Positions 2,076 to 30,378 of a DNA stretch of 32,849 nucleotides are shown here, piece after piece. Location: the sequence record DRR378314_1877; one strand, given 5' to 3'. The notes beneath the pieces were generated by a model. That model saw only the letters and a program-made list of their open reading frames with translations, made no database searches and was not told the DNA's origin. Position 1 is the first letter of the stretch. The number at the start of each line of letters is the position of its first letter. Made by a program: the position numbers and the translations under genes.

Positions 2076-2135
2076 AATTCATATTTTATAGATTAATCAA
2101 ATTCATTTCCTGTAAGCAATTGCCTTTAAACAGGT

Positions 2136-3389: not shown

Positions 3390-3432
3390 TTTTTAAAAAT
3401 ATTAGTTGATATAAACACCTCGCATATAAATT

Positions 3433-8869: not shown

Positions 8870-8874
8870 TTATG

Positions 8875-9819: not shown

Positions 9820-9846
9820 TCGCGTGTATTAAAATTAAAGTTTGGT

Positions 9847-14273: not shown

Positions 14274-14296
14274 TGTCAAAATTTTATACTCATTGT

Positions 14297-14499: not shown

Positions 14500-14551
14500 A
14501 CTTCTCCCCCGATAGCTATCGGGAGCCCCGCAAAAGGGACTCAGTAGAAGT
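14500..14551. repeat. REP-like palindromic element
   Basis: Perfect 16-bp palindrome CCCGATAGCTATCGGG (14508-14523), enclosed by ACTTCT (14500-14505) and AGAAGT (14546-14551). It is a GC-rich island in an intergenic region and resembles a repeat I recall from Flavobacteriaceae genomes. Confidence 0.65.
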
Positions 14552-14657: not shown

Positions 14658-15302
14658 TTAAAATAGAAGTTCTAGATCCACTATTTTATTAATAGAATGC
14701 TCCGCCTTGGGAACATCTCCAAAGCCATATTTGGCAAAAACAAAAGGAATTTGGTTCCCAATCGCCGCCGTATAATCTCCCATGGTATCCCCAATATAGA
14801 TGGGTTTGGTGAGTTTATTTCTTTCAATGACCATTTTTACGTTTTCAGTCTTTGACAAGCCCGTATTGCCCGAACATTCAAAATCTTTGAAGTAAGCACT
14901 TAAACCATGAAATTCATAAAAGGCTTCTATATAGCCGGCCTGACAATTACTGACTATAAACAGATCATACTTTTTACCTAAGGTTTTCAAAGTTGCCTCC
15001 AATCCATGGTACAAAACCCCTCCGGACTCCTTAATGTCATTTACCTCCTGTACATAGCAACTATTCATAACTTGAAATTGCTGCTCTTCGCTTAAATATG
15101 GAAATAATTTCTTACCTACCAAATCGTGCTGCATTCCCAAAATACCCTGTATATCTTCCTCCGAAATGGGGTTTTTAATACAATCGAATCCATTCAAAGC
15201 TGTATGCCAAGCCTTAATGCTCATGGGCATAGGGTCCCATAGGGTTCCATCCAGGTCAAAAATGATGTTTTCAATATTGTCCCTTAAATCACTCAGAGCC
15301 AT
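14658..15302 (-). CDS. HAD-superfamily hydrolase (phosphatase)
   Basis: Motif I IFDLDGTL, motif II VSN, conserved Lys in SKTEN and motif IV YIGDTMGD. No signal peptide. Confidence 0.9.
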   Translation of the reverse strand: MALSDLRDNIENIIFDLDGTLWDPMPMSIKAWHTALNGFDCIKNPISEEDIQGILGMQHDLVGKKLFPYLSEEQQFQVMNSCYVQEVNDIKESGGVLYHGLEATLKTLGKKYDLFIVSNCQAGYIEAFYEFHGLSAYFKDFECSGNTGLSKTENVKMVIERNKLTKPIYIGDTMGDYTAAIGNQIPFVFAKYGFGDVPKAEHSINKIVDLELLF

Positions 15303-15330
15303 TTTTTAAAAGTTTTAAATAGTACAGGTC

Positions 15331-16338
15331 CTAAATTAAGTTGACTACCTCACCTGTTTCGGCCGATTTATAGGCCGCATCCACAATGTCCAGCACCATT
15401 TGTCCTTCCGAAAGTCCTGGAACCGGTTGTTGTCTGGTTTTGAGACATTCAACAAAATACTCCATTTGACGGGTATAGATTATTTGGTCGCAGTGATCCT
15501 CCCTTTTTGGAAGCTCGGGCACTGTGGTTACCGTACCTTCACCTTCCTTCATTTTTAAAAATGTAGGAAACAGATTGGCATAACCCTTTGTGCCAAACAG
15601 ACTGGTACTAGCTTCAGGTCCGTCCATATGTGGATGCCACCATCCACTTTCAATGATGCTTTCCGTGCCATTGTCCCAAGTAATTACCAAGATTCCCGTG
15701 TCGTCTACATCATAATCCCCAAATTCCGTGGAAATTCTGGCATATACCTTTACGGGTTTTGGATCTCCCAAGATATATCTTACTGCATCAATGGCATGCA
15801 CCCCCATATCTGCCAAGGCCCCGCCCCCGGCCAACTCCTTTTTGGTAAACCATCCGGAAGGGCCCCAATTTTCATGTATTCCGTAGCCCTTGGTCTTAAA
15901 TACTCTTCCTATTGTTCCCGAGGCTACGGTATCCTTTATATAACGGGTATCGGTATCGAAACGCCACATATGACCAACCATCACCAATTGGTTATGCTTG
16001 GTTGCTACCTCAGCTATTTGTTTGCCTTCATCACCACTCATTCCCATGGGTTTTTCAAGAAAAACATCCTTACCATTCTGCAAAAACTCTATGGCATAGG
16101 GAGCGTGAAATTGATTGGGAGTACTTATAATTACCGCATCCAGATCATCCCTTTTTACCAATGATGAAATATCGATCAAAGCCTCTTTAATATTGTATTT
16201 AAGGGCAAATTTTTGGGCATTATCTAGGTTTTTGGACACTACGGCCGCTATTTCAACATCGGCCAAGGTTTGCAGTCCACGAGCGTGATAATCCGATATA
16301 AATCCCGCACCTATTAGGGCTATTTTAATTTTTTCCAT
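15331..16338 (-). CDS. Gfo/Idh/MocA family NAD(P)-dependent oxidoreductase
   Basis: Rossmann motif IGAGFIS, STPNQFH, EKP and GGGALADMGVHAID. No signal peptide. Confidence 0.92.
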   Translation of the reverse strand: MEKIKIALIGAGFISDYHARGLQTLADVEIAAVVSKNLDNAQKFALKYNIKEALIDISSLVKRDDLDAVIISTPNQFHAPYAIEFLQNGKDVFLEKPMGMSGDEGKQIAEVATKHNQLVMVGHMWRFDTDTRYIKDTVASGTIGRVFKTKGYGIHENWGPSGWFTKKELAGGGALADMGVHAIDAVRYILGDPKPVKVYARISTEFGDYDVDDTGILVITWDNGTESIIESGWWHPHMDGPEASTSLFGTKGYANLFPTFLKMKEGEGTVTTVPELPKREDHCDQIIYTRQMEYFVECLKTRQQPVPGLSEGQMVLDIVDAAYKSAETGEVVNLI

Positions 16339-16381
16339 TTTTTATAAATTACTTAAATTTCTATGGCCGGGCAGTAGCGTT

Positions 16382-17200
16382 TCAATAGTCATTTTCAAAA
16401 GCTTGAAGCATTTTTGATAACTTATCGGTCAAAATAAAATCGACCCCCGCATCCAATAATTCCTTAACGCGCCCTTCCTCTTCGGAATGAAAATAATTAA
16501 TGCGAATCCCATTATCCTTTAGCTTTTTTAAGTCCGTCAGAATATTTTCATCGTCCCTACTGCTTCTTAATTGAAGAAATGCAAAGCCATTTTCTATGGT
16601 CCCATTTATATATTCAGCGCGGGTAGATAGGCGCTCCATATTACACATCATTATATTTGGATTTACACGCCTTACCCCTTTTGCTGCCTCATTTTCACAG
16701 GCAATAACAGCCTGATGGATTCTGTCCGCTGAAATCACGGCTTCGGCTGTTGCGGCTCCCAAACGTTCGTCCCCTTTTAAATGGATGTTAAGCCAGATAT
16801 TTCTGGGCATAATTTCCAGCGCCTCCTGTAAGGTGGGAACCCTTTCTTTCTTAAACTCTTTGGATTTCCATTTGCCCGCATCCAACCTTTTTATTTTCCT
16901 CAATGTAAGATTCTTCACCAGTCCTCGGCCATTGGTGGTCCTATTTACCTTGTCATCGTGCATAATCACCAACTGATTGTCCTTGGTCATATGAACATCC
17001 AACTCTATCATCTGCGCTCCTAAACGAATAGCCTCCCCAAAGGCTGCCAAAGTATTCTCCGGATGGGTCTCATTGGCCCCCCTATGGGCACCAATGCCAT
17101 TTTGGGGCATATTTTCATTTTCTGGGAGATCCATGGAATCTTGACCAAAAACAAGATTATTCCAAGTGAAAATAGCGAGAAGGCCTATAAACAATTTCAT
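16382..17200 (-). CDS. Glycerophosphodiester phosphodiesterase family protein, secreted
   Basis: Motifs AHRG, PENTLAAF, IELDVHMTKD, VIMHD..NRTTNG, RVPTLQE and GVDFILTD. N-terminal signal peptide. Confidence 0.88.
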   Translation of the reverse strand: MKLFIGLLAIFTWNNLVFGQDSMDLPENENMPQNGIGAHRGANETHPENTLAAFGEAIRLGAQMIELDVHMTKDNQLVIMHDDKVNRTTNGRGLVKNLTLRKIKRLDAGKWKSKEFKKERVPTLQEALEIMPRNIWLNIHLKGDERLGAATAEAVISADRIHQAVIACENEAAKGVRRVNPNIMMCNMERLSTRAEYINGTIENGFAFLQLRSSRDDENILTDLKKLKDNGIRINYFHSEEEGRVKELLDAGVDFILTDKLSKMLQAFENDY

Positions 17201-17254
17201 CTGTTAAAAATATTATTTTCTAAAAGCTACAACTTTAGCACCACCAATACTGCC

Positions 17255-18538
17255 CTAGTCCATTAATTCCTCGGCATGGGTATAAATCTTTTTTATGGCA
17301 TCGGCCACCAAATCCATATCCGCTTTTGTTCCCATTAACACCTTATGATGTACACAAACCGACTCTTCCTTAAAAATACGTTCACAGACCGGTAAAGAAA
17401 ATCTTTTTGGATCAATAGCTTTCCAATAGGCATCATTTAATTTGTGTCTGGAAGGTTTTGTATGTGGTACGTACAATGAGCAATTATTTAAAGGCTCATA
17501 GCAGGCATCCACAATTATACCCAATTCCGCTTCCAGGGCGGATCTAAACCTCTCTATAGGCAAATTCTTGAACTTGCTTGAATCGTATCGAAAAGCAAAA
17601 TTGAAATAAGCCTTTTTGGTTTCCCGATCATCTCTTTTTAACGGGGTCACCCCTTCTATTTCCTTTAGAAGCGTATTTAAATAAACCCCATTGGCGTCTC
17701 TGTTTGCGTTCTGTTCTGGCAATCTTTTTAAGCCTTCTACCAGTATAGCTGCTTGAAATTCGGTAATCCGATAGTTACCGGACTGAATAAAATTACCGTC
17801 ATCACCATAATCCCCTATCCCTTTGTCGGCACCGATCAACGAATCTCCTTCCGGTCTGCGACCAACATTTCTCAGGGCATCCATTTTTTCTGCCAAATCA
17901 GTATCATCCGTAGTAATAGATCCCCCTTCACCAGCAGTTAAATGTTTTGATAATTGAAAACTGAAACTCCCGACATTACCGATACTTCCGGCTTTTTTAC
18001 CTTTCCATTCACCTCCGTGCTTGTGGGCACAATCCTCAATTACATAAAGGTTATGCTTCTTGGCAATGGCCATTATCGCATCCATATCCGCAAAGGCACC
18101 GTAGAGATGTACTGGCATAATAGCTTTTGTTCTTGGAGTTATGGCCTTTTCTATTTCTTTTGGATCTATACACCAGGTATCCTCACAAATATCCACCAAT
18201 ATGGGGGTAGCATTTACATCGATTACCGTGGCAGCAGTAGCTTGCCACGTTAGGCCAGGGACAATAACCTCGTCACCAACGCCTATACCCAAGGCTTCCA
18301 AAGCAATTTGCATGGTTATGGTACCGTTTACAACACATATGGCATGTTTTGTCCCCGTATATGCCGCAAATAGTTTATTGAACTCCATTTCCTTTGGCCC
18401 ATTATAGGACCAAACCCCACTATTCAGGACCTCTATCAGAGCAACTTCCTCTTCCTTCCCCCAGACCGGCCATTTAGGCCAGGGATTCTTATTGGTATCG
18501 CGACTAGGTAAGCCGCCATTTATTGCTAGTTTTTTCAT
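17255..18538 (-). CDS. DegT/DnrJ/EryC1/StrS PLP aminotransferase, BtrR/StsC/RifK-like subgroup
   Basis: Motifs WPKWP, ALGIGVGDEVIVPGLTWQATA, PVHLYG, IEDCAH, SFQLSKHLTAGEGG (PLP Lys), NYRITEFQAAIL and HHKVL. ATG 18538 is preferred over TTG 18544. Confidence 0.9.
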   Translation of the reverse strand: MKKLAINGGLPSRDTNKNPWPKWPVWGKEEEVALIEVLNSGVWSYNGPKEMEFNKLFAAYTGTKHAICVVNGTITMQIALEALGIGVGDEVIVPGLTWQATAATVIDVNATPILVDICEDTWCIDPKEIEKAITPRTKAIMPVHLYGAFADMDAIMAIAKKHNLYVIEDCAHKHGGEWKGKKAGSIGNVGSFSFQLSKHLTAGEGGSITTDDTDLAEKMDALRNVGRRPEGDSLIGADKGIGDYGDDGNFIQSGNYRITEFQAAILVEGLKRLPEQNANRDANGVYLNTLLKEIEGVTPLKRDDRETKKAYFNFAFRYDSSKFKNLPIERFRSALEAELGIIVDACYEPLNNCSLYVPHTKPSRHKLNDAYWKAIDPKRFSLPVCERIFKEESVCVHHKVLMGTKADMDLVADAIKKIYTHAEELMD

Positions 18539-18567
18539 TGTCAATGGTTGTTATAATAAGATTTCGT

Positions 18568-19689
18568 TTATAATTTTTCAGGGTCCAAAACTACATGCTT
18601 CACGGTCTTTCTATTCCATGTATACACTATATGTACCATTCCGTTAGGGTTTTGAATCAGGGTGGGGTACGAATATTCCTCTCCCTTTTTGTCTGTTGTT
18701 GCTGTTAAGGGTTCCAAATCCAACACTCTCTTCCATATTTTACCGTCTTGGGAAAGACCTACGCTCAAGGGAACCCTATCCTCGGATTCAATGGTGGTAG
18801 GATTATAGATCAATAAATGTCGACCGTCCTTTAGCGTAATGGCATCAATCCCTGAATCAGGATTGGGAAGATCCGTAGCAGTCATTTCGCTCCAGCTGAA
18901 TCCACCGTCATAGGACCAATTTTGCCCTATTACCCCCTGATAGGTTCTGCTTAATAATTGGATGGTATCGTTGCCGTGATCTAGGATGGCCGGTTGTATG
19001 GCCTTAAATGTTTTACCATCGTTCAAAGGGGCCGTTTTGGTCCATGTTTTTCCAAAATCCACACTTCTTTCCAAATGGATTTTATGACCTACCGTTTCGC
19101 TCTCGGTACTGGAAGGTGATAAAATATCCCCATTGGATAAAGTAACTGGTCTATTCTTTATCGGTCCCAAAATACTGTCTGCCAATCTGATAGGCGAAGA
19201 CCAGTTTAGACCATCATCCTCAGAGGTCTTGTACATTCCCCACCAATATAATGGATCGGGACCAACTTTGTAAAAGAGTATCAAAGGTTTATTTTGAGGT
19301 TTAAAAATAACCGGATTCCAACTTGGATATCGAATTCCATCTTCCTCCACGCCATTGGCTACCTCTACCGGGGTTGTCCATTTACCTCCCATTTTTCTAG
19401 AAACCCAAATACCTACGTCATTGTTTTTTTCTTCCGTTCCCCCGAACCAGGAAGCCACCAGAATACCATTACTAACATCTATAGTTGGAGCATGACATTG
19501 GGGCGTTAAGCCTTGGCCTATGGGGTAAATGTATTCTTCAAGGGCTATGGCGGGATGCTTAGCAGAAGTTTCCGAGCTATTTACCTTCACCTTTTCCTTA
19601 CATGACGAAGCCGATATTACAAGGGCAATAGCAACTAAATTTTTTACACAAATTAACATAGTAACAGTAATTAAATGTCTGCTAATCAA
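18568..19689 (-). CDS. BNR/Asp-box beta-propeller (sialidase-fold) lipoprotein
   Basis: Asp boxes SEDDGLNW, SVDFGKTW, SYDGGFSW and SQDGKIW. Also EYSYP and lipobox SASSC. The start is uncertain (TTG 19689 or ATG 19659). Confidence 0.85.
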   Translation of the reverse strand: MISRHLITVTMLICVKNLVAIALVISASSCKEKVKVNSSETSAKHPAIALEEYIYPIGQGLTPQCHAPTIDVSNGILVASWFGGTEEKNNDVGIWVSRKMGGKWTTPVEVANGVEEDGIRYPSWNPVIFKPQNKPLILFYKVGPDPLYWWGMYKTSEDDGLNWSSPIRLADSILGPIKNRPVTLSNGDILSPSSTESETVGHKIHLERSVDFGKTWTKTAPLNDGKTFKAIQPAILDHGNDTIQLLSRTYQGVIGQNWSYDGGFSWSEMTATDLPNPDSGIDAITLKDGRHLLIYNPTTIESEDRVPLSVGLSQDGKIWKRVLDLEPLTATTDKKGEEYSYPTLIQNPNGMVHIVYTWNRKTVKHVVLDPEKL

Positions 19690-19716
19690 AACAAGGAAAA
19701 GAACTCTTTCTTGGGA

Positions 19717-22290
19717 CTATTCCAAATTCCATCCCTCTACCTTCAATTCGGCCTCGGAAGTTCCTTTAAAATTGGCGCAAACCATGCGTTCCTCCCCTGG
19801 TAGTAAGTTTATAAAATTATCTTCCCAGAATATGGGCAATACAAGTTCTCCCGTCCTTTTATCCACTACCTTTAGGTTAATTAAAAATGCTATATGATCA
19901 CCGTTGTTCTTAAGTGCTACCTTGATATTTTGCTGTTCACTGTCCTGCTCAAAATAATGTGATTGCCCCAACTGGGTTTTAGGCAGCTCATTCAACTGGG
20001 TAAAGTCTGCATATACCTTACTGGGGGTGTGAAATGCAAATGGCCCCAAATCGGCCTCATAGTCCAACACCTCCTCTTTGGTGGATAGCCAATAAAAATT
20101 ATTGCTGATCTCTACACCTGTTTTATCCAACAAACGAAGATCTACAAAATAGGTAGTGGTAAGCCCTTTGAGTTTCCCTAATTCCAAAATAGATTTTGAT
20201 GAATCCGGATCCAAAGTAAAGTTTACCTTATCCTCGAACAACATCTCCGACCCTATAGAATATACTCTAATATGGGCGGTTAATTTTTCCTCCGTCCCTT
20301 GGCGGTCATTAATGGCATATATGTGTTTATCCCCATAATTGTAAATAAGACTTAGGGGCAAACATGCTTTTTGGGTAGCGTAAAACGCTGCTGTAGGGTT
20401 TAAATAATAGTCGTACAACTGCCAATACATCTTTGGCCAGGCCGCATTCAACATCCATTGGACAATACCCGTGGATTTCTTTTTGTTGACTTGAAAAGCT
20501 TCGAACATAGGCCGCATAAGCTCATAGTTCATGGCCTGGGCCTTTCTATCGAACTCTTCCAAGGAACTGGGAGCTCCATATTTTTCATCCATGGCCTTGG
20601 TAAATCTACTTAAATCGGCAAACTCATACCGTCCGCAATGAAAATTCCAGGCTTCGCCCATTGGCCACAATTGTTCTTGAGGAATCATCTTTTTTAGACT
20701 TTCCAATTGGGGAATCTGAGCTCCGGGACCGGTTTCTGTATTAAACCCATAGGCACCGCCAAATTTGGTGTCCGTAAACCAATAAACCGGGGCAGTATAG
20801 GCATAGGGACCCAACATCTTTACACCGGAGGATCCACTAATCTCACTAATTACATCCTCACTGCCTATAACGTGTTGATCACTGCCCACACCACCTGTAG
20901 AATTTAAATAAGGCCTTGTGGGATCATACTTGGCGAAAGTGTCTATATATTTTTGCTCCAATTCCGTAATCGGCACCTTGTCACTGGCAACAGTCCAAAC
21001 AAAGATACTTGGGTGGTTGCGAAGCCATATCACCTGATCTTCCCAGGCTTGGGCAACATGGGAAATATGCTCTGGCTTATATACACCTCCAAATCGCTCA
21101 TTGACCGGGACCCCCATATGGATCTCATGCTCCCAATGGCAACTCCAACCTACCATTAACAGTATACCATGTTCATCACAGAGGTCGTACAATTTGTGGT
21201 CTTTTCCCCAAAATCCTTCCAAACGAATACAATTGAGATTCATTTGTTTTACGTACTTCACTTGGGCCTCAATACTTTCGTCCGTATCCATCAACAGCAT
21301 ATCATCTGTCCAACCGGCACCTTTTATCAATACCTTTTGTCCATTTACCTTATAACCTCTATGAATATCGTTTAACCAATAATCCTGTATATCGCGAATT
21401 CCAAATCTCAGCTGGGCAGTATCCAAGACCGTCTCCTTGGCAACAAATTTTAAATCCAGATTATAGAGATCGGGATTCCCCAAATTAATGGGCCACCAAA
21501 GTTTAGGCTCCTTAAAATTAAGTCCCACAAACTCCTTACTGTCAAAGGTGATCAGCTTTTTATTATTGGGGGACAAGCTTATATTTTTCTTGAACACTAT
21601 AGCCCCTATGGTCCCTACTAAATCTCCAGAAATTTCAGCCTTGGAATAATTGGTCAGTTCCGCCGAAACAGTAATGTCGGCCTCTTTCAAGGTCTTAAGA
21701 TTTACCTTGGTCTTCACAAAGGGTTTTTCAATTTGTACCCCACCATGAAGGTGCAAGGTTACAGGCCTAAAAACACCCATGTCCCCATCTGGAGGGGCAG
21801 GATTCCAATCTACAAAACCTATACTAAAATCGCCGGGTTGGGGTGGAATTACCTCAATGGCCAAAATATTGGATCCACTTTTAATATGTGTACTTACATC
21901 AAAAGAGGTAATTCGAAATGCCCCGTCTATATCAGTGGCATCGGCGATGAGTTGTCCATTTAACCAAACATTGGCCTTATAGTTTATACCGTCAAATTTT
22001 AAGCTGGCAAACTCATTGGATTGCTCCTTTGTAAGTTCAAAACTGCTTGTGTACCACCAGGATACTTTAAATAGTTCTGTTGGGATGGCCTTTAAATTCT
22101 CCCCAAAATATGGGTCTTCGTAAACCCTGTTGGCCACCAAAGTGCTCAAAACGGTTGAAGGAACGACGGCGGGTAACCAATTTTCCGAAATTGTGGGGTT
22201 CGTAGAGATATCACTCCCCTTTTCCGAAACTTTACTTGAACTCTGGATTCTCCAATTATCCGATAACTTTATTTGGACGGACTTGTGCAT
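19717..22290 (-). CDS. Glycoside hydrolase family 2, exo-beta-D-glucosaminidase (CsxA)-like, no signal peptide
   Basis: Motifs FDGINYKANVWLNG, LWWP, FGIR, IRLEG, LRNHPS..ASD, KMLGPYAYTAPVYW, GFNTETGPG, WMLN and WQLYDYYL. Confidence 0.85.
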   Translation of the reverse strand: MHKSVQIKLSDNWRIQSSSKVSEKGSDISTNPTISENWLPAVVPSTVLSTLVANRVYEDPYFGENLKAIPTELFKVSWWYTSSFELTKEQSNEFASLKFDGINYKANVWLNGQLIADATDIDGAFRITSFDVSTHIKSGSNILAIEVIPPQPGDFSIGFVDWNPAPPDGDMGVFRPVTLHLHGGVQIEKPFVKTKVNLKTLKEADITVSAELTNYSKAEISGDLVGTIGAIVFKKNISLSPNNKKLITFDSKEFVGLNFKEPKLWWPINLGNPDLYNLDLKFVAKETVLDTAQLRFGIRDIQDYWLNDIHRGYKVNGQKVLIKGAGWTDDMLLMDTDESIEAQVKYVKQMNLNCIRLEGFWGKDHKLYDLCDEHGILLMVGWSCHWEHEIHMGVPVNERFGGVYKPEHISHVAQAWEDQVIWLRNHPSIFVWTVASDKVPITELEQKYIDTFAKYDPTRPYLNSTGGVGSDQHVIGSEDVISEISGSSGVKMLGPYAYTAPVYWFTDTKFGGAYGFNTETGPGAQIPQLESLKKMIPQEQLWPMGEAWNFHCGRYEFADLSRFTKAMDEKYGAPSSLEEFDRKAQAMNYELMRPMFEAFQVNKKKSTGIVQWMLNAAWPKMYWQLYDYYLNPTAAFYATQKACLPLSLIYNYGDKHIYAINDRQGTEEKLTAHIRVYSIGSEMLFEDKVNFTLDPDSSKSILELGKLKGLTTTYFVDLRLLDKTGVEISNNFYWLSTKEEVLDYEADLGPFAFHTPSKVYADFTQLNELPKTQLGQSHYFEQDSEQQNIKVALKNNGDHIAFLINLKVVDKRTGELVLPIFWEDNFINLLPGEERMVCANFKGTSEAELKVEGWNLE

Positions 22291-22303
22291 TCTATATGTT
22301 TTA

Positions 22304-22534
22304 TTATTCCTTCTTGGATTTTAATTTCTTCATAGTTCTTTTTGCCTTCCACATCATTCCGCCACCAATGGATATTAGTATTAAACCAGCAACCATATCG
22401 GTCATATGTTCTACGAAGGTTTCTGTATAGATCATTGCAAAAAGTACAATAACCCCAAAAGCCATAATGAAAAATCCAAGAGCATTGTTAATTTGAGCGG
22501 CCTTTAAGCCCGCATTTATTTCATTTGTCTCCAT
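22304..22534 (-). CDS. Small two-TM membrane protein
   Basis: 76 aa with two hydrophobic helices and a Lys-rich tail. ATG start, with 13-17 nt gaps to its neighbours. Confidence 0.75.
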   Translation of the reverse strand: METNEINAGLKAAQINNALGFFIMAFGVIVLFAMIYTETFVEHMTDMVAGLILISIGGGMMWKAKRTMKKLKSKKE

Positions 22535-22551
22535 ACTTTTTTATTAAGGGG

Positions 22552-22767
22552 TTAAAAATGATTATAGATCGATGCCAAAATACAAAGTACGGCAATAGAC
22601 CATAGTTTTAAATTATTCCACCAGTGCCGATCTTCCTTGGCAATACCCTGGTAAACATACTCTGTAGGCAATAACAGCACCAAAAGTCCTATTAGGGCGT
22701 ACAAAGAAAGAAATATCATTTTTGCAGTTTCTTGCGAAACACCGGAAAGCCAGTCAAAATTGAACAT
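22552..22767 (-). CDS. Small two-TM membrane protein
   Basis: 71 aa with two hydrophobic helices around a WWNNLKLW loop. The ATG lies 1 nt after the SSS stop codon. Confidence 0.75.
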   Translation of the reverse strand: MFNFDWLSGVSQETAKMIFLSLYALIGLLVLLLPTEYVYQGIAKEDRHWWNNLKLWSIAVLCILASIYNHF

Positions 22768-22768
22768 A

Positions 22769-24277
22769 TTACAGTTTTTTATTTTCCACTAAAATTTTTG
22801 AACTAAACACCAAGCCTTTAAGTTGTTCTTCGGTATGTTTCTTGGTGAGCAGACTTACTACAACATTAATTATAAACCCTAACAGGAAGGACCACCAGGA
22901 AATATAGAGAAAAGGATCTTCTATGGTGAAGAATTGTTCCTTAAATACATTAAGATATATGGCAAATCCAATACCTATGACCAATGCCGAAAGACCTCCC
23001 CATTCCGTAGTTCGTTTCCAGAAGATTCCTAAAAGAAGAATGGCGAATATGGGTCCTTGGAAATAGGACATAAAGGTTTGTATGGCCACATAAATCCCTG
23101 GGAAATCGCTGCTAATTGGTGAGGTAGCAACTCCAATAAGCAACAGCACCAAGGTGGTTATCTGCCCTACTTTTAAATAATGTTTGTCATCCGCCCCTTT
23201 TTTAATAAACGGTTCGTAGATATCCTTTGTAAATAAGGTGGCCGTTGAATTTAACAAGGAATCCACACTGGACATAAGCCCTGCAAAAAATGCGGCGAAC
23301 ATAAGTCCGACCAAACCGGGAGGCAGAATGGATTTGATCATCATTGGCAGCGCCTGATCTCCGTCCAGCAATCCGGGATGAACCACTACAGCCATAAGCC
23401 CAGGAAACAAAACCAAGATTGGAATAAACATTTTAAGTGCAGATCCAAAAATCATACTCGCCTTTGCGTGCCATTCGTTTTTGGCGGTAAGACAGCGCTG
23501 TACAATAGATTGGTTACCTATCATATATGCATTGGCCATAACAAAGGTTAGACCAAATAAAATTCCAGTCCATGGAAAGGGCGATTTCGTATCCTGTGGT
23601 TGTATAATATCGAAATGATTGCGATATTCGGGTCCCATTGTAGCGATTTTATCTACCATATTATCCCATCCTCCAACTTCGTAAAGACTCAGAAAAACTA
23701 AGGCAAAGCCTCCTATAAACATTATAACGAACTGAACAACATCGGTCATTATTACAGCTGTAATACCCCCGAAATAGGTATATAGACCAACCACACCGGC
23801 AGTGGCAACAATGGATATCCAGATGGGCCACCCCATGAGTACATTTAATAGAACTGCACTGGCCCAAAAAAGAACCCCCAAATCCAAGGCAAAAAACAGG
23901 ATCCAGGTAACAGAAGCAATAGTCCTTACCTTTTGGTTATACCTTCTTCCCAGGTATTCCGGAATAGTGTACATACCCCCACGCCAGAAATAAGGAATAA
24001 AAATAAAGGCCGCCAGTAACATTGCAGGAACTGAACCTACCCAATCAAAGTTGCCGACAGAAATACCATATCTATAAGCTTGGCCGGATACCCCCACAAA
24101 ATCCAATGCCCCAATGTCCGATACTACGATCGACATACCAATGGCCCAGAAAGGTAGGCTTTTGCCTCCTAGAAAATAGTCTTCGGAACTATTGACAAAT
24201 TTTTTGAAATATAGCCCCAGTAATAGCATTCCTATTATATAAGCTATTACAATAAAATAATCTATCCCTGCTAACAT
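22769..24277 (-). CDS. Sodium:solute symporter (SSS/SLC5, sugar-type)
   Basis: Motifs EDYFLGGKSLPFWAIGMSIVVSDIG, TIPEYLGRRY, GGITAVIMTDVVQ, NQSIVQRCL and AGLMSSVDSLLNS. About 13 TM helices. Confidence 0.93.
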   Translation of the reverse strand: MLAGIDYFIVIAYIIGMLLLGLYFKKFVNSSEDYFLGGKSLPFWAIGMSIVVSDIGALDFVGVSGQAYRYGISVGNFDWVGSVPAMLLAAFIFIPYFWRGGMYTIPEYLGRRYNQKVRTIASVTWILFFALDLGVLFWASAVLLNVLMGWPIWISIVATAGVVGLYTYFGGITAVIMTDVVQFVIMFIGGFALVFLSLYEVGGWDNMVDKIATMGPEYRNHFDIIQPQDTKSPFPWTGILFGLTFVMANAYMIGNQSIVQRCLTAKNEWHAKASMIFGSALKMFIPILVLFPGLMAVVVHPGLLDGDQALPMMIKSILPPGLVGLMFAAFFAGLMSSVDSLLNSTATLFTKDIYEPFIKKGADDKHYLKVGQITTLVLLLIGVATSPISSDFPGIYVAIQTFMSYFQGPIFAILLLGIFWKRTTEWGGLSALVIGIGFAIYLNVFKEQFFTIEDPFLYISWWSFLLGFIINVVVSLLTKKHTEEQLKGLVFSSKILVENKKL

Positions 24278-24454
24278 TGATTTGGCATTTTGGTTAATTA
24301 CCTACAAATTAAATTCAAATAGAGGTGATTGAATAAGTAAATCTTATTTCATTTACATGGTATATTGACATAAGACCTAGTTTTTTGACTTATTTCAGGG
24401 CAATTAAGTTAAAATTATAGCAGTTTGTATAATGAATGAAATATCACATAATAA

Positions 24455-24483
24455 ATATTGATATGACCTACCTATATCAATAT
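24455..24483. promoter_or_regulatory. Inverted repeat, candidate operator in the divergent promoter region
   Basis: Perfect 10-bp arms: ATATTGATAT - N9 - ATATCAATAT. Confidence 0.4.
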
Positions 24484-24671
24484 ATATAATACCACTACCT
24501 ATTTTAACCATAAAATCGGTCCCAAATAGTGAGGTTCCAAAATGGTGCAGTATACCTTTAAGAAATATTCTTACCAAAAATCAAACATATCTTAACCTAA
24601 AATTTTCAATATCATAATATTGACCCGAAAAGAGGTAAAATTCCATAAGTATCTAATAAAATACTATGCTT

Positions 24672-24698
24672 TTTGTCGATTATTTTACAATAGTTTTG
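24672..24698 (+). promoter_or_regulatory. Candidate Bacteroidota promoter for susC
   Basis: TAGTTTTG (24691-24698) matches TAnnTTTG about 36 nt before the ATG. TTTG at 24672-24675 gives a short 15-nt spacer. Confidence 0.4.
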
Positions 24699-24734
24699 TT
24701 AACGAAATGCTAATTACTCAACCAATTAATATAA

Positions 24735-27700
24735 ATGAATATGAAAAAAAGCAGCTTGAAATTTTTGACTTTCCTTTTGTTCAGCATGGTTTCTGGAATC
24801 ATGTTGGCACAACAAGGTGTAACGGGAGTCGTCAGCAGTGATGATGGCGAATTGCTCCCTGGGGTGTCCGTGGTAGTAAAGGGAACTACCACTGGTGTTA
24901 CCTCTGATTTTGATGGTATTTACAGTATTACTGTTCCCAACAGTAGTGCTGTTTTGGTGTTCTCCTATTTAGGAATGGAAACGAAAGAAGTGGCGGTTGG
25001 TAATCAAACCACCCTTAACGTAACTATGGCAACCTCCTCCGAGCAATTGGACGAAGTTGTAGTAACCGCTCTGGGTATATCTCGTGAAAAGAAATCCTTG
25101 GGATATTCTGTAAGTGAGGTAGGAGGTGACGCTTTAGATAACGTTCCTCAAGAGAACGTTTTAAACGCTCTTTCGGGTAAGGTATCCGGGGTGAATATCA
25201 ATTCTACTGGTGGTGCAGGTTCTACTGTAAACATTAATGTGAGGGGCGCAGCTTCGCTGTCCAGTGACAACCAACCATTATTTGTAATCGATGGTTCTCC
25301 TGTAATTAATACAGCGAACAACATTACAGAAATAGGTAGGGATAACAAAGTGGATTACGGTAATGCCATTTCTGATATCAATGCAGACGATATTGCCAGT
25401 GTTACAGTTCTAAAAGGTGCCAGTGCAGCAGCACTTTATGGCTCTAGGGCAGGTAACGGGGTTATATTAATTACAACCAAGTCTGGAAAATCTAAAAAAG
25501 GATTGGGAGTAACTATTAATACCAGTACTGTTTTTGATATTCCTAGTCGTTTCTTAGATACCCATACTAGGTTTGCAACAGGTTCCAGACCTTATACCGA
25601 AGATAATTTCCCGGCGAATTCTTATGGTGCCATAATCATTGGTGAAACTGCTTCAGCATGGGCAGGTCCTGAACTGGACAAAGGCATCATGGCAATCCAA
25701 TGGCCATATAGCGCAGAGGAAATAGCTAGTGGTGTTCCTGTTCCAAGGGAATTGAAGTCGTACAACAATCCAAAGAATTTCTTTCAAACGGCCGTTACAA
25801 CAACCAATAATATTTCTATCCAGGACAATACGGAAAAAATTAATTATAGGTTGTCCTATTCGGATCTACAGAACAAGGGAAACATCCCTAATACGGATTT
25901 ACACAAACATAGTATCAGTTTAAATTCATCATTGAAGTTAAACGAAAAATTTACGGTTAGTACTAGTCTTAACTACACAAAAACTGGTGCGGACAACAGA
26001 CCTGTTGGTAACCGCGGGGCCAACGCAATGCAGGCAGTTTACGAATTGAACCCACATATTGATGTGCGTCAAATGAAGGATTATTGGTTACCAGGTTACG
26101 AAGGCATCTTCCAAAATTCACCTTATAATTTTGGGGACGATCCAACAGAAACCGAATGGAACAACCCTTATTTCTTAGCTTACGAGAACAACAATGGTTT
26201 TGAAAGAAACAGGTTTTATGGTAATGTTAAAGGAGAGTATAAAATCACCGATGATCTAACAGGGATGGTTCGTTACAACATGGATGAAATTAACGAAGTA
26301 CGAGAAACCAAATTGTCTAAAGGATATACTGGAGACATGAATGGGGCCTATGGTATCAACAAAATTTTCACAAATGAAACAAATGTCGATTTCTTATTAA
26401 CTTATGCCAAAAGACTGGAAGGATGGGATTTCTCAATATCTGGAGGAGGCAACAAAAGGGTTTTAAAAGGAAACAATTTGTTAAATTCTACCATAAATAG
26501 AGGATCTGGACTTTTAACTCCAGGATTGTTCACTTTATCCAATATTGCCAACGACAATTTAATTTACTCTTACAACAGTTACGAAAAACAAGTAAATAGT
26601 TTGTATGGAATGGCTAGTATTGGTATTAAAGATATGTTCTATGTAGACGTTACAGGAAGAAATGATTGGTCCAGCACCTTGCCAGACAATAACAATTCCT
26701 ATTTTTACCCTTCCGTATCCACTAGTTTATTGGTTAATAGGCTTCTTGGTTTTGGCAACGGGGTATCCTTATTAAAACTTCGTGCCGGTTATGCCGAAGT
26801 AGGTAACGATACAGGGGCATACAACCTACAACCTACTTTAAATGGTGGTACCTCATGGGGATCAGGATCTTTGTTATCCGTGCCCTCTACGCTACTTAAC
26901 CCTGATTTAAAACCAGAAAGTATATCCTCTTGGGAAGGAGGAGCTGATTTGGCCTTCTTTAACAATAGGTTAAGTATGGATTTTACATATTACACCGCCG
27001 ATAACGAAAACCAAATTTTTGGAATTGCGCTACCTATCTCCTCAGGATATAGCTCTAAAAACACCAATGCTGGTCTATTGAGAAGTACAGGTATAGAAGC
27101 TGGTTTAAATGCTAACATCATAAACTCCAATGATTGGCGTTGGGATATGGGCTTCGTGTTTAACAGAAACCGAACCAAGGTAATTGAATTGGCTGAAGGT
27201 ATGAATTCCATTACCTTTTGGACCGATGCCCGTGGTGGTGCCATAACCTGGGTTGGTGAAGAAATAGGAAATATTTTTGATGCTGCCCTAGTGCGTGTTG
27301 AAGATCCTAACTCGCCTTATTTTGGATGGCCTATTATTGATGATTCCGGTTTTGAGAATAGCGACAGAACTAGAGAAGACGCGGACGGAAACAGGGTTGC
27401 TCCAATTATTGGCAACTTTAACCCCGATTTCACTTTAGGGATGACCACTTCCGCTTCTTATAAGAACTGGAGCATCTCCATGAATTTTGACTGGAGAAAA
27501 GGTGGACAGTTTGTTTCACAAACCCACAGATACGGAGAATCTGATTTACATACCCAACGATGGATTGATAAATTGCATAATTTTAATGACATTTCCGATA
27601 TTCCTGCGTACTTAAGGGAAAATGCGGACCAATTCTTATCTGAAGATGGTGAATTTTATGTATTGGTTGGTGGGCCTACAGCAGCAGATGGTGGTCTTCC

Positions 27701-28154
27701 TTATACCGAAGGTGGAATTACATTGAACGATGGTGTATTTATGCCAGGGGTTCAAGGAGATTATGACGATAACGGCAACTTCATAGCTACAGCCGAAAAC
27801 TTAGGAGGTCCTGGAACTGTAGTTACAAGATACCAAGATCACTACGGATGGGACTTTACCAGAAATGCAACTTTTGATTCCGATTTCGTAAAATTAAGAG
27901 AAATTTCACTTACTTATTCCGTGCCAAGCAAACATATAAAACAAGTAGGACTTCAAAATCTAAATATATCTTTATTTAGCCGAAATATTATCCTATGGAC
28001 CAAGGCCGATATAGGAATCGACCCTGAGATGGCTTTCCAGCACGAATCAAGTACACAAGGAGGAAGTGGTATCCAATTTAAGCAAGGTATAGAGCGCTTT
28101 AATATAAATCCATTTACTATTCCAATAGGTTTCAAACTTAACGTAAGTTTCTAA
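24735..28154 (+). CDS. susC: SusC/RagA family TonB-dependent outer-membrane transporter
   Basis: Signal peptide, N-terminal extension (PGVSVVVKGTTTG), LDEVVVTALG, plug motifs PLFVIDG and VLKGASAAALYGSRAGNGVILITTK, RNDWSSTLP, LKPE and a C-terminal Phe. Confidence 0.96.
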   Translation: MNMKKSSLKFLTFLLFSMVSGIMLAQQGVTGVVSSDDGELLPGVSVVVKGTTTGVTSDFDGIYSITVPNSSAVLVFSYLGMETKEVAVGNQTTLNVTMATSSEQLDEVVVTALGISREKKSLGYSVSEVGGDALDNVPQENVLNALSGKVSGVNINSTGGAGSTVNINVRGAASLSSDNQPLFVIDGSPVINTANNITEIGRDNKVDYGNAISDINADDIASVTVLKGASAAALYGSRAGNGVILITTKSGKSKKGLGVTINTSTVFDIPSRFLDTHTRFATGSRPYTEDNFPANSYGAIIIGETASAWAGPELDKGIMAIQWPYSAEEIASGVPVPRELKSYNNPKNFFQTAVTTTNNISIQDNTEKINYRLSYSDLQNKGNIPNTDLHKHSISLNSSLKLNEKFTVSTSLNYTKTGADNRPVGNRGANAMQAVYELNPHIDVRQMKDYWLPGYEGIFQNSPYNFGDDPTETEWNNPYFLAYENNNGFERNRFYGNVKGEYKITDDLTGMVRYNMDEINEVRETKLSKGYTGDMNGAYGINKIFTNETNVDFLLTYAKRLEGWDFSISGGGNKRVLKGNNLLNSTINRGSGLLTPGLFTLSNIANDNLIYSYNSYEKQVNSLYGMASIGIKDMFYVDVTGRNDWSSTLPDNNNSYFYPSVSTSLLVNRLLGFGNGVSLLKLRAGYAEVGNDTGAYNLQPTLNGGTSWGSGSLLSVPSTLLNPDLKPESISSWEGGADLAFFNNRLSMDFTYYTADNENQIFGIALPISSGYSSKNTNAGLLRSTGIEAGLNANIINSNDWRWDMGFVFNRNRTKVIELAEGMNSITFWTDARGGAITWVGEEIGNIFDAALVRVEDPNSPYFGWPIIDDSGFENSDRTREDADGNRVAPIIGNFNPDFTLGMTTSASYKNWSISMNFDWRKGGQFVSQTHRYGESDLHTQRWIDKLHNFNDISDIPAYLRENADQFLSEDGEFYVLVGGPTAADGGLPYTEGGITLNDGVFMPGVQGDYDDNGNFIATAENLGGPGTVVTRYQDHYGWDFTRNATFDSDFVKLREISLTYSVPSKHIKQVGLQNLNISLFSRNIILWTKADIGIDPEMAFQHESSTQGGSGIQFKQGIERFNINPFTIPIGFKLNVSF

Positions 28155-28184
28155 TTAGGCACTTTAAACAAAAAACAAAAAATC

Positions 28185-29879
28185 ATGAGTAAAATAAATA
28201 AGATATTTAAACTATTTCTCGTAGTTTGTCTACTGTCCGCTACTTCGTGCGACAATGAGCTTACAGAAATTAACCAAAACCCCAACGGGGTAGATCCGAG
28301 CCAAGGCAATCCAAGTTTTTTATTAACACAAGTGATGGTGAATACCGCTTTGGACGTAGGCAGTAAAGGCTATAGTGGAGAATTATCTGCCTTTGTGCAA
28401 TACACCCAAAAAGATTCTTGGGGCAACAACAATTACGATTGGGATGGCAGTGGATGGAACACCTACTACGGAAACTTGCGTAGTGCTAAATTAGCACTGC
28501 AACGGTCTCAAGAATTAGGTTATACCTTACATGAAGCCATTGCCCAAATATTAATGGCGCAGAACTTTGTTACTTTGGCAGATTACTATGGAGACGTTCC
28601 TTATTCAAACGCTGTACAAGCTGACGAAGATGTTATTTTGCCAACTTACGATTCCCAAGAAGCTGTATATAAGGGGGCTATTGCTGATTTTGTAGCTGCT
28701 GCTGCTTCAATATCCAACAATATGGGCAACTTGGAAGCCTTTGGTGCCAGCCAAGATATTTTCTTTGGAGGCGATGCCGAAAAATGGATGAAATACGCCA
28801 ACTCCTTGGCCCTACGTTATTACATGCGATTGTCTGAGAAAGACCCATCTTATGCACAAGCAGGGGTAACGGCCACATTGGCGAAACCTTTGATCAGCAG
28901 TGTGGATGAGGAGTGTGCCTTGGCCTATATAGGTACATCTGATGGAACTGCACAACCTAGCAACAGTTCAACAGGAGGAGCATCTGCCTTCAATCGTGTT
29001 AAGCCTTGTACTACTTTTACCGATAGATTAAGGGAACTTAATGACCCAAGAGCCAATATTTGGTTTGCACCTGTTGCAATTCCAATTAAAGTTGTGGCTG
29101 CAGCAGACGTTCCTGGTGGAGAAGATGATGTGGTTGTAGATGGAGTACGTTATATCAATGAAGAAACTCTTGCAGATAATGGTCTAAAGATATATGACAA
29201 AAATACCTGGAAAGCCGATCGTTTGGCTGGATTAAGTTTGGTAGATACTAGTAGCACCTATGTGGGTCTCCCAGTATCGTATCAAGGATCGGAGCCATAC
29301 ACCTATAACTTGAACCCTAACCCGGTACAAGGTGGAGGCAATGTACATGTTTCATTAATGAACGATCAGTTTAAAGAAGCTAGTGGAGATTTCTTAAAAG
29401 CTAGGGTTCTGTCTTATGCGGAAGTTTGTTTCTTAAAAGCAGAAGCTGCCCTAAAAGGTTGGGGTACAGATGCAGAAGGAAACTATAACAAAGGAGTACA
29501 AGCATCTTTGGATACATGGGGAATTGGCGATGAATATGCAGATTATATAGATAATGCCGAGGTTGCCTTTGATGGTACACTAGCCCAGATCATGGAACAA
29601 AAATGGATAGCCAACTTTGCTACCGCTTCTGAGGCATATTTGGATTGGAGACGTACTGGACTTCCTGATCTACAGACTGGACCTTTTGCCCTATCGTCAG
29701 TAATCCCAGTTCGTTTTCAATATCCTGATGAAGAAAGAAATATTAATGAAGCTAATTACAATGCAGCATTATCTTCATTGGAAACAACCAGCCACACCAA
29801 CGATGTGCCCGGAAAATACGAAAATGACACACCATGGTCCAAACCTTGGATATTACAGGGGGTTACAAAGCCTTGGTAA
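28185..29879 (+). CDS. susD: SusD/RagB family nutrient-binding lipoprotein
   Basis: Lipobox SATSC. Motifs YGDVPYS, PTYDSQE, W..YANSLALR, DPR, YAEVCFLKAEA, QKWIA and EAYLDWRRTG. Lies directly after susC. Confidence 0.94.
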   Translation: MSKINKIFKLFLVVCLLSATSCDNELTEINQNPNGVDPSQGNPSFLLTQVMVNTALDVGSKGYSGELSAFVQYTQKDSWGNNNYDWDGSGWNTYYGNLRSAKLALQRSQELGYTLHEAIAQILMAQNFVTLADYYGDVPYSNAVQADEDVILPTYDSQEAVYKGAIADFVAAAASISNNMGNLEAFGASQDIFFGGDAEKWMKYANSLALRYYMRLSEKDPSYAQAGVTATLAKPLISSVDEECALAYIGTSDGTAQPSNSSTGGASAFNRVKPCTTFTDRLRELNDPRANIWFAPVAIPIKVVAAADVPGGEDDVVVDGVRYINEETLADNGLKIYDKNTWKADRLAGLSLVDTSSTYVGLPVSYQGSEPYTYNLNPNPVQGGGNVHVSLMNDQFKEASGDFLKARVLSYAEVCFLKAEAALKGWGTDAEGNYNKGVQASLDTWGIGDEYADYIDNAEVAFDGTLAQIMEQKWIANFATASEAYLDWRRTGLPDLQTGPFALSSVIPVRFQYPDEERNINEANYNAALSSLETTSHTNDVPGKYENDTPWSKPWILQGVTKPW

Positions 29880-29922
29880 ATAAAGATTGAGTTTCATTTA
29901 TTGAGTTTTGAGTTAGTTTTAG

Positions 29923-29950
29923 AATGCCCCGGGAAATCGGGGCATTTTTT
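29923..29950 (+). terminator. Rho-independent terminator after susD
   Basis: AATGCCCCG (29923-29931), loop GGAAAT, CGGGGCATT (29938-29946), followed by a T run. Confidence 0.88.
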
Positions 29951-30150
29951 ATTCCTACCAATCCAGAACAAAAAAAATGTTCCAAATCCCTCTTTGTCCT
30001 CCCAAAATTATAATTGCATATGGACAAGAGAGGTAAACCTTTGGATTAAAAATAGTATCTAAGGTATGTTTGATAAATTCTTAATTGTTAATCAACAAAA
30101 AGCCGGTACTATCTTACTCGACACCGCCCAATTCGGAAGAATTTGGAACA

Positions 30151-30357
30151 CTAAACAGTACAACTATCGCCTTCCTTTTTTACCCCCAATTTGAATAAAA
30201 TCTTTTCCATAAGGCACCATTGTGTAAATGCAGATTGAAAAAGATTAACACCTACAAAAACGGTAAACCACAACCAGTTTATGTTTACGTATACGGCCAA
30301 TACAACACTAATAACTACAAAAGCCCCGGCAATTGCCCGGATATACCTGTTGATCAT
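30151..30357 (-). CDS. DUF2892 (YgaP-like) small membrane protein
   Basis: Motif R..R..AG, two TM helices, then FVGVNLFQSAFTQWC and a C-terminal Cys. Confidence 0.85.
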   Translation of the reverse strand: MINRYIRAIAGAFVVISVVLAVYVNINWLWFTVFVGVNLFQSAFTQWCLMEKILFKLGVKKEGDSCTV

Positions 30358-30378
30358 AATATTATTTTTTAAAGGTTA

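Follow-up and report, generated by a model that had tools for sequence, protein, structure and literature searches.

Why a DegT-family pyridoxal phosphate (PLP) aminotransferase should lie among the importer and hydrolase genes of a polysaccharide utilization locus (PUL) is the question raised by positions 14658–29879 of sequence record DRR378314_1877. The whole stretch analysed, hereafter the window, is 32,849 nt long. A sequence-only reading had suggested that the locus may encode a catabolic pathway for amino sugars or aminocyclitols, and from sequence comparisons we arrive at a more specific proposal, in which the locus would be a PUL with a mobile, cross-phylum cassette for the use of β-glucosaminides at its centre, and glucosamine (GlcN) would be transaminated and the resulting keto sugar reduced. 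We hold this reading tentatively, as possible but somewhat short of an even chance.

The window is Arenibacter (Flavobacteriaceae) DNA, and its DegT protein is 95–99 % identical to proteins of A. palladensis, A. algicola, A. echinorum and A. troitsensis. The listing of open reading frames (ORFs) and the Pfam and NCBIfam scans recovered all eleven genes named by the sequence-only reading, as follows:

14658–15302, minus: HAD-IA phosphatase-like protein (HAD; HAD_2, PF13419, 5.5e-20)
15331–16338, minus: Gfo/Idh/MocA NAD(P) oxidoreductase, putative keto-sugar reductase (Gfo; PF01408, 1.5e-27)
16382–17200, minus: exported glycerophosphodiester phosphodiesterase, accessory (GDPD; PF03009, 4.4e-40)
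17255–18544, minus: DegT-family PLP aminotransferase of the BtrR-like clade (DegT; PF01041, 3.6e-99; likely start ATG at 18538)
18568–19689, minus: BNR_2 sialidase-family lipoprotein, accessory (BNR; PF13088, 1.6e-80; likely start at 19659)
19717–22290, minus: predicted cytoplasmic CsxA-type exo-β-glucosaminidase (GH2; Ig_GlcNase domain PF18368, 7.6e-27)
22304–22534, minus: small ORF, 76-amino-acid (aa) membrane protein (sm1)
22552–22767, minus: small ORF, 71-aa two-helix membrane protein, predicted small subunit of the symporter (sm2)
22769–24277, minus: sodium:solute symporter, putative inner-membrane glycoside importer (SSS; PF00474, 1.3e-80)
24735–28154, plus: SusC-type TonB-dependent outer-membrane importer (TIGR04056; Plug and CarboxypepD_reg domains)
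28185–29879, plus: SusD-like lipoprotein of the SusD-like_2 type (PF12771, 1.1e-78)

The minus-strand genes form the tightly packed operon that had been described with gaps of about 1–55 nt; from HAD to SSS the computed gaps are 28, 43, 54, 23, 27, 13, 17 and 1 nt, and a divergent spacer of 457 nt separates SSS from SusC. SusC scores 618.9 bits against TIGR04056 (cut-off 368.25), and the adjacent SusC/SusD pair is linked to glycan-processing genes, so that the locus qualifies as a PUL. A terminator-like hairpin (29921–29948) lies just 3′ of the SusD-like gene. In the 378-nt spacer 3′ of HAD there is a GC-rich inverted repeat (approximately 14515–14545, minus strand, arms of about 8–10 nt, short loop), which is followed by no T run and was not listed by the terminator scan. 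No hybrid two-component system (HTCS), extracytoplasmic function (ECF)/anti-sigma or SusR-type regulator was found within 14658–30684; AraC or LacI genes occur near some related loci. Among the 21 window ORFs scanned there was no kinase, NagA, NagB, glycosyltransferase or nucleotidyltransferase domain, in line with the earlier statement that the operon lacks NagA, NagB and such transferases. The accompanying statement that there is no kinase holds for these ORFs but not for the relatives, since a ROK kinase gene directly follows Gfo in 10 related loci.

Conservation of the cassette across phyla

Related loci were collected by a one-genome-per-species scan, which gave 214 pattern matches, 188 of them encoding relatives; the best 80 loci were kept, with DegT proteins 66–99 % identical to that of the window. 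Their sources are Flavobacteriaceae, one isolate of the Saprospiraceae, metagenome-assembled genomes (MAGs) of Bacteroidales and Rikenellaceae, one MAG each of Chlorobiota and Calditrichota, and seven of Planctomycetota. Gene presence was scored by tblastn with the window proteins, counting only loci with enough flanking DNA, by criteria that we set ourselves. SSS was present in all 59 loci so counted, sm2 in 63/65 and a full-length GH2 beside DegT in 66/70, three of the four misses being contig-edge truncations and the fourth the Calditrichota locus (L081). Gfo was found in 60/68 loci, with five of the eight misses in Planctomycetes, and sm1 in 59/68, where it was not detected in the Planctomycete loci. 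A SusC gene was linked to the cassette in 42/52 loci, and in Planctomycetes the core genes are also encountered without SusC/SusD. The remaining genes were GDPD (32/68 loci, all Flavobacteriaceae-type), BNR (20/59) and HAD (18/65, all Arenibacter). No Gfo ortholog turned up close to the cassette of the Planctomycetes or in 4/4 Planctomycete genomes, in which the best Gfo-like protein is 29–31 % identical and stands among 80–111 family candidates per genome. Because of these counts and the Planctomycete result, the invariant core is the importer, its small subunit, the glucosaminidase and the aminotransferase, the reductase being exchangeable; HAD, GDPD and BNR are lineage-specific additions.

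Of what the sequence-only reading had claimed about gene context, the company of importer and hydrolase genes, rather than of glycosyl- or nucleotidyltransferase genes, was confirmed for DegT by the tight co-conservation in the related loci. The co-conservation that it expected of the operon extends to GH2, SSS, sm2 and Gfo, which are kept with DegT, but not generally to GDPD, HAD and BNR. Its triad of DegT, Gfo/Idh/MocA and HAD had to be given up as a unit, with HAD confined to Arenibacter, Gfo missing beside the Planctomycete cassettes and NtdA only a distant relative of DegT.

The same association was seen in an independent phylogenetic profile. Among 301 Flavobacteriaceae genomes (300 genera), DegT orthologs occurred in 12 and GH2 orthologs in 13, and the two genes lie side by side in the same 12 genomes. 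Going by the locus counts given above, the gene arrangement is no chance juxtaposition. The thirteenth GH2-bearing genome (G156) encodes a 47–49 % identical paralog, accompanied by MFS transporters and a hybrid two-component regulator; this context is unrelated and includes no DegT, and as a clue to the fate of GlcN it is uninformative. The distribution of the cassette is patchy within the family, yet DegT identity across phyla is 67–73 %, which suggests that the cassette is horizontally mobile. In the Calditrichota locus (L081, 2940–14977), the genes for a 72 % identical DegT and a 62 % identical Gfo are preceded by one for a LacI-type regulator and followed by those for a TonB-dependent receptor, a 1136-aa protein lacking annotation and a PorV-like barrel.

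Core proteins and a possible route for glucosamine

GH2 bears on the nature of the imported sugar. In the comparison with the PDB, it matched CsxA (2vzs) at 3e-140, with residues 13–855 aligned to residues 57–890 of CsxA, and β-mannosidases at 5e-36 at best. Residues E358, D437 and E519 align with E394, D469 and E541 of CsxA and are invariant in 69/69 orthologs; the VASD motif of GH2 aligns with GSD469 of CsxA, and RLEG with RLE394G. According to a 2025 study of GH2 subfamilies (PMC12243196), the signatures of the glucosaminidase subfamily GH2_16 are SD instead of the NE acid/base motif and Glu instead of a conserved His, and both occur in GH2, provided that CsxA E394 is the Glu of that paper, an equation of our own. 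This signature favours β-GlcN as the predicted substrate. GH2 has no signal peptide and starts 13 nt past the preceding stop, so that no hidden signal peptide is possible, and the earlier description of the enzyme as CsxA-like and cytoplasmic stands. Its sequence stops level with residue 890 of the 1032 of CsxA, and the last ~140 residues of CsxA, presumably its chitosan-binding module, are missing; GH2 thus has neither the secretion nor the C-terminal module of CsxA. Since GDPD, BNR and SusD have a signal peptide and GH2 has none, the glycoside would have to be imported whole.

As CsxA is a chitosan enzyme, the locus might be an ordinary PUL for chitosan or chito-oligosaccharides, with GlcN passing to a kinase and NagB, and DegT and Gfo as mere passengers. 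A nagB gene elsewhere in the nearest genome and a YdjC-type deacetylase in four loci would agree with this. However, no chitosanase, chitinase or other endo-glycanase was found in any annotated locus, and GH2 is without the C-terminal extension and secretion signal of CsxA. Moreover, DegT and GH2 occur in the same 12/301 genomes and adjacent to each other in 66/70 loci across phyla, which argues that they are not passengers. A chitosan PUL of this kind fits the synteny poorly and is highly improbable. Two further substrates for GH2 were rejected. Aminoglycosides are α-linked, in conflict with the β-glucosaminidase signature. Glycans of glycosylphosphatidylinositol (GPI) anchors or glycosyl-inositol-phosphoceramides had appealed through GDPD, the phosphatases, ceramidase-fold proteins and GH92 enzymes of relatives, the IolG-like Gfo and the inosose-type DegT, but their GlcN is α-linked to inositol, and they were rejected because GH2 enzymes are retaining β-glycosidases and the CsxA signature is present here.

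The putative importer, SSS, scores 330.5 bits against TIGR00813, above the cut-off, reaches no equivalog cut-off, and is 68–99 % identical among the loci, Planctomycetes included. Neither sm1 nor sm2 matched any Pfam or NCBIfam family over a cut-off. The sm2 gene is found directly beside SSS across phyla in the 63/65 loci given above, and its product has 19 invariant alignment columns. Models of an sm2–SSS complex gave a median score of 0.82, compared with 0.00 for the best control, a mark reached by 51/78 solved complexes and 2/108 mismatched pairs; the runs agreed in at least 98 % of contacts, with a partner predicted local distance difference test (pLDDT) score of at least 83. The modelling supports a role of sm2 as a small subunit that would bind SSS, and a 71-aa partner of an SSS importer would be a further testable novelty.

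Among solved structures, the best relatives of DegT are three L-glutamine:2-deoxy-scyllo-inosose aminotransferases (5w70, 6e-98; 5w71, 5e-89; 2c7t, 5.4e-89), the group of BtrR, RbmB and KanB, and the next family follows at 3.3e-57. The protein has the DegT fold, a Schiff-base lysine (K200) invariant in 77/77 sequences and its closest similarity to the BtrR clade. It had been called BtrR/RifK-like; the first half of this label is sound, whereas 3-amino-5-hydroxybenzoic acid (AHBA) synthase/RifK (1b9h) lies far behind at 3.7e-56, as do WbpE (1.5e-43) and NtdA (4k2b, 1.1e-32). The nearest solved relatives act on free cyclitols, not on nucleoside diphosphate (NDP)-sugars.

All characterized close relatives of DegT are biosynthetic, and the best NCBIfam match of Gfo is an inositol 2-dehydrogenase. 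Both facts would suit a biosynthetic or salvage route, modelled on 2-deoxystreptamine, rhizopine or kanosamine synthesis, in which an imported sugar or inositol would be oxidized by Gfo and aminated by DegT to an amino sugar or aminocyclitol, for example scyllo-inosamine. Against it, neither a 2-deoxy-scyllo-inosose synthase nor a glycosyltransferase, nucleotidyltransferase or export gene was seen in the scan of the 21 window ORFs or in any annotated neighbourhood, the rest of the genome not having been searched for the synthase. In addition, the partners that never vary, an importer and an exo-hydrolase, lie in SusC/SusD loci, and the neighbours in relatives (ROK, GH92, phosphatases, esterases) are catabolic. 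Biosynthesis therefore fits the synteny poorly, and we see it as a very slight prospect. A catabolic reading of DegT appears reasonable, because the genes co-conserved with DegT are those of importers and hydrolases rather than those of glycosyl- or nucleotidyltransferases.

The assignment of Gfo is broader. Its best NCBIfam match, iolG (TIGR04380), reaches 166.1 bits against a cut-off of 355, so the protein is neither an equivalog nor to be called IolG; an archaeal UDP-N-acetylglucosamine (UDP-GlcNAc) 3-dehydrogenase follows with 131.9 bits, and the D-xylose 1-dehydrogenase Gfo6 was matched with 115.6 bits. Its neighbours in the PDB are mixed and include DgpA, inositol dehydrogenases, the aldose-aldose oxidoreductase 5a02 (1.1e-23) and 1,5-anhydrofructose reductase, and the lysine of its EKP motif (K96) is invariant in 67/67 sequences. 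As 1,5-anhydrofructose reductase is a 2-keto-sugar reductase that is active on glucosone as well, the reduction proposed below as the last step of the cassette has a precedent within the family. Like GH2 and DegT, Gfo and HAD have neither a signal-like nor a lipoprotein-like N-terminus.

From these assignments we infer every catalytic step of the following route, the direction and substrate of the transaminase, and the identity of the group X to which GlcN is attached. SusC and SusD would take in a small glucosamine-containing glycoconjugate, which exported accessory proteins would trim, namely GDPD and BNR here, and phosphatases, amidases, esterases and GH92 enzymes in relatives. SSS with its 71-aa subunit would carry the remaining GlcN-β-X glycoside to the cytoplasm, where the signal-less CsxA-type GH2 would free GlcN. 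The BtrR-like aminotransferase would then pass the amino group of a free, non-nucleotide amino sugar to a keto acid, in the version that we prefer converting GlcN to the 2-keto sugar glucosone, and reduction of the keto sugar by the Gfo/Idh/MocA enzyme would give a neutral hexose. This hexose may then be phosphorylated in some relatives by a ROK kinase, and the position of the ROK gene directly after Gfo (10 loci) is consistent with such an end product.

Several points weigh against this route. To our knowledge, no PLP transaminase acts at C2 of a free aldose, our literature search found no C2 transaminase for free aldoses, and the DegT/Gfo pairs known so far have C3 or an inosose as their target. 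No enzyme of the operon reaches an NCBIfam equivalog cut-off. The nearest genome contains, outside the cassette, a nagB gene that exceeds its cut-off and a nagA-like gene that narrowly misses its own, so that GlcN could be handled conventionally, with DegT and Gfo serving another amine; because of this nagB, the cassette would be an addition to the standard amino-sugar route and not a replacement. Gfo is replaced or missing in Planctomycetes, and the Calditrichota locus has DegT and Gfo without GH2 or SSS within 4.4 kb upstream. Seawater metatranscriptomes count in favour of the route, in that contigs from four runs, all of one study, extend over the operon and join GH2 to sm1, with the flanking bins empty, and a single 5.2-kb contig spans SusC and SusD, but these contigs attest presence in RNA libraries, not a single transcript or induction, and their uncovered parts carry no meaning. 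In run X6, the word depth was 47.8 for the SusC/SusD contig and 3–8 for the operon contigs, contig depth being unable to rank genes.

The lack of a C2 precedent and the nagB of the nearest genome led us to give substantial weight to two variants of the cassette logic. In the first, DegT and Gfo would remove an amine at C3 or another non-C2 position, as in 2,3-diamino-2,3-dideoxyglucose (GlcN3N) from the lipid A backbone (GnnB and GnnA reversed, yielding GlcN), in kanosamine or in an aminocyclitol aglycone, and GlcN itself would go to a kinase and NagB. All characterized pairs known to us, GnnA/GnnB, WbpB/WbpE and NtdC/NtdA, work at C3 or on an inosose, and the UDP-GlcNAc 3-dehydrogenase match of Gfo, the action of the best DegT relatives on inososes, the nagB gene and the ROK kinases accompanying the cassette in 10 loci all point the same way. 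On the other hand, WbpE and NtdA are much weaker matches (1.5e-43 and 1.1e-32) than the inosose enzymes (6e-98), a CsxA-type pocket may not accept a 3-amino sugar, and no natural β-GlcN glycoside of an aminocyclitol is known to us. We regard this variant as unlikely, though a serious contender.

In the second variant oxidation would come first, Gfo converting GlcN at C1 to glucosaminate, and DegT yielding 2-ketogluconate. The Gfo/Idh/MocA family has aldose 1-dehydrogenases (Gfo6, 115.6 bits; 5a02, 1.1e-23), glucosaminate is an α-amino acid and as such, by established PLP chemistry, an ordinary substrate for a transaminase, and a DgaE-family lyase cluster (242–3389) in the same window makes sugar amino acids plausible in the diet. 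What speaks against it is that the core cassette has no lactonase, 2-ketogluconate kinase or 2-ketogluconate reductase, that the recurrent ROK kinases belong to a family acting on neutral hexoses and hexosamines, and that no DegT-clade enzyme is known to us to act on sugar acids. This order of steps is improbable in our estimation.

Amino sugars form a large pool of marine organic nitrogen, and the textbook routes for them are phosphorylation with NagB-type deamination, or glucosaminate lyase. If the preferred reading is true, with GlcN transaminated to glucosone and glucosone reduced, non-phosphorylative transamination and reduction would be a new entry into amino-sugar catabolism that delivers nitrogen straight to glutamate, through a cassette that Bacteroidota, Planctomycetota, Calditrichota and Chlorobiota of sediment and seawater have in common at 67–99 % identity. 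It would likewise assign a physiological role to the BtrR-like aminotransferases found beyond antibiotic producers, a very large and uncharacterized clade (6688 cluster representatives at E ≤1e-30). In the literature, searched at the level of listings and abstracts, we found no account of this cassette, of a glucosamine transaminase, of bacterial catabolism of lipopolysaccharide (LPS) or of the function of PF10142; the component families are known, and relative to that literature their combination and the implied pathway are not described.

Accessory genes and the upstream substrate

The exported proteins of the locus and its relatives bear on what lies upstream of the β-glucosaminide. GDPD has a signal-like N-terminus and scores 145 bits against PRK09454 (cut-off 264). 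BNR has a lipoprotein-like N-terminus ending in SASSC; it matches solved sialidases weakly (E 0.004 or worse), and the name of each of its nearest Atlas clusters is ‘sialidase family’. Most Arenibacter relatives have, between GDPD and Gfo, the gene of a 592-aa purple-acid-phosphatase-like lipoprotein (for example L013:12373–14151), and there is no such gene in the window, where the GDPD–Gfo gap is only 43 nt (16339–16381). Counted over all 80 loci, many of which are cut by contig ends, the purple-acid-phosphatase-like lipoprotein is present in 15 and PF10142 α/β hydrolases in 11. A β-PGM-like HAD occurs in 10 loci, in which it occupies the position of the unrelated HAD of the window, and a ROK kinase directly after Gfo in 10 as well. 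GH92 pairs and a GSU2086-family protein were each counted in eight loci, neutral-ceramidase-fold proteins with signal peptides in five, a YdjC/HpnK-like deacetylase, a BD-FAE esterase, an M19 dipeptidase and an RfaE-like PfkB-HAD fusion in four each, and a GmhA-like isomerase in three. Three of the ceramidase-fold proteins exceed the Pfam cut-off, and one of the genes is inserted between GH2 and DegT; comparison of the ceramidase-like and PhoPQ-related proteins with the PDB gave no useful matches. With accessory phosphoesterases, amidases, esterases, GH92 and sialidase-like proteins and no endo-glycanase, the upstream substrate looks like a small phosphorylated, acylated glycoconjugate ending in a β-GlcN glycoside, and not a polysaccharide.

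LPS core-lipid A is the one abundant natural structure known to us in which a β-linked GlcN disaccharide, amide- and ester-linked acyl chains, phosphates, 3-deoxy-D-manno-oct-2-ulosonic acid (Kdo) and often mannose or heptose come together. The cassette might accordingly be imagined as the cytoplasmic end of a new bacterial pathway for eating LPS. Core-lipid A would lose its acyl chains, phosphates, Kdo and mannose or heptose to exported enzymes, namely esterases, ceramidase-fold amidases, phosphatases, phosphodiesterases, a sialidase-like Kdo hydrolase and GH92 enzymes; the universal β-1,6 GlcN (or GlcN3N) disaccharide backbone would then enter through SSS and be split by GH2, and the transaminase would collect the amino groups of this backbone. 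PMC3573668 describes sialidase-like proteins as Kdo hydrolases. The accessory sets, varied by lineage, would mirror the diversity of lipid A decoration. On the opposite side, GDPD has no obvious target in LPS, and LPS is so variable that gene content alone can hardly contradict such a reading. We judge it decidedly unlikely; were the lipid A backbone the substrate, this would be the first bacterial route for recycling LPS, of importance for the turnover of necromass carbon and nitrogen.

Four Bacteroidales MAGs (L052, L080, L086 and L092) carry a co-linear block 3′ of the cassette, with genes for a PF10142 hydrolase, a GSU2086-family protein, a PfkB-HAD protein resembling RfaE domain I, a ROK kinase, a GmhA-like isomerase and a PHP/CehA-like metallohydrolase. 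The PfkB-HAD fusion scores 127.5 bits against a cut-off of 345 and the GmhA-like SIS protein 159–174 bits, below its cut-offs, in three to four Bacteroidales loci. The block may be a heptose- or mannose-phosphate branch. Heptose catabolism was considered as proof of the LPS reading and set aside as a lead, since these genes could equally serve mannose-phosphate metabolism. Other lineages have neighbours of their own. In four Planctomycetota MAGs (L061, L063, L066 and L067) a conserved secreted protein of ~730 aa without family match comes after SSS, in two Planctomycetota loci a ~920-aa protein, also without family match, comes after DegT, and GH2 of L061 has as its neighbour an aldo/keto reductase with a Tat-like N-terminus.

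Outside the locus, the window contains on the minus strand a second possible amino-sugar-acid module (242–5214), which resembles glucosaminate-type catabolism:

242–823, minus: RidA-like protein
861–2075, minus: DgaE-family PLP ammonia-lyase-like protein (TIGR01437, 187 bits, below the cut-off of 385)
2136–3389, minus: amidohydrolase/deacetylase (NF006689, 446.9 against a cut-off of 371)
3433–5214, minus: glucose/sorbosone-dehydrogenase domain fused to cytochrome c

A link of the DgaE/RidA/amidohydrolase cluster (242–3389) to the cassette was rejected, as the two are not co-conserved and a RidA-like neighbour was seen in one locus only (L045). Between this module and the operon, genes of planctomycete type occupy 7463–14279 of the flavobacterial window:

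7463–8869, minus: PSCyt1/DUF2231/LRR protein
8875–9819, minus: Mala_s_1-like β-propeller
9847–11298, minus: DUF1501 protein
11298–14279, minus: PSCyt2/PSD1 protein

Such genes directly follow HAD in most Arenibacter loci and do not do so in other genera. On the far side of the locus, a 101-aa ORF without Pfam or NCBIfam match (30379–30684, minus) lies between the hairpin 3′ of SusD and an AcrB-type efflux gene.

Comparison with known systems

As in canonical Bacteroidota PULs, SusC and SusD are placed divergently from or beside catabolic genes, but the present locus has no endo-glycanase, its sole clear glycosidase is cytoplasmic, and it has no recognizable regulator. With CsxA of Amycolatopsis orientalis (GH2_16, PDB 2vzs/2x09), GH2 shares the whole catalytic core, the Ig_GlcNase domain, the SD acid/base motif, the signature Glu and the nucleophile Glu. 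Unlike CsxA, the window enzyme is shorter, has no signal peptide, is predicted to be cytoplasmic and symporter-fed, and is not accompanied by chitosanases.

The BtrR, RbmB and KanB enzymes match DegT over nearly the full length, have the catalytic lysine in common with it and act on free, non-nucleotide-linked substrates. They differ from it in context and probably in direction, since DegT has no 2-deoxy-scyllo-inosose synthase, glycosyltransferase or resistance gene nearby, belongs to an importer and hydrolase cassette of Bacteroidota and Planctomycetota, and presumably works as a deaminating enzyme. The kanosamine systems NtdABC/KabABC and RifK/L/M likewise combine a DegT-fold aminotransferase, a Gfo/Idh/MocA dehydrogenase and a HAD phosphatase. 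However, NtdA (1.1e-32) and AHBA synthase (3.7e-56) are distant from DegT, HAD is not co-conserved with the cassette, no sugar-phosphate step would be needed here, and the context is one of uptake and hydrolysis, not of synthesis.

A last parallel is GnnA/GnnB, reportedly the UDP-GlcNAc 3-dehydrogenase and transaminase that make the GlcN3N of some lipid A. The pair performs the same chemistry, from alcohol to ketone to amine, on a glucosamine scaffold, and in reverse it would fit; unlike the route proposed for the cassette, it acts on UDP-sugars in biosynthesis.

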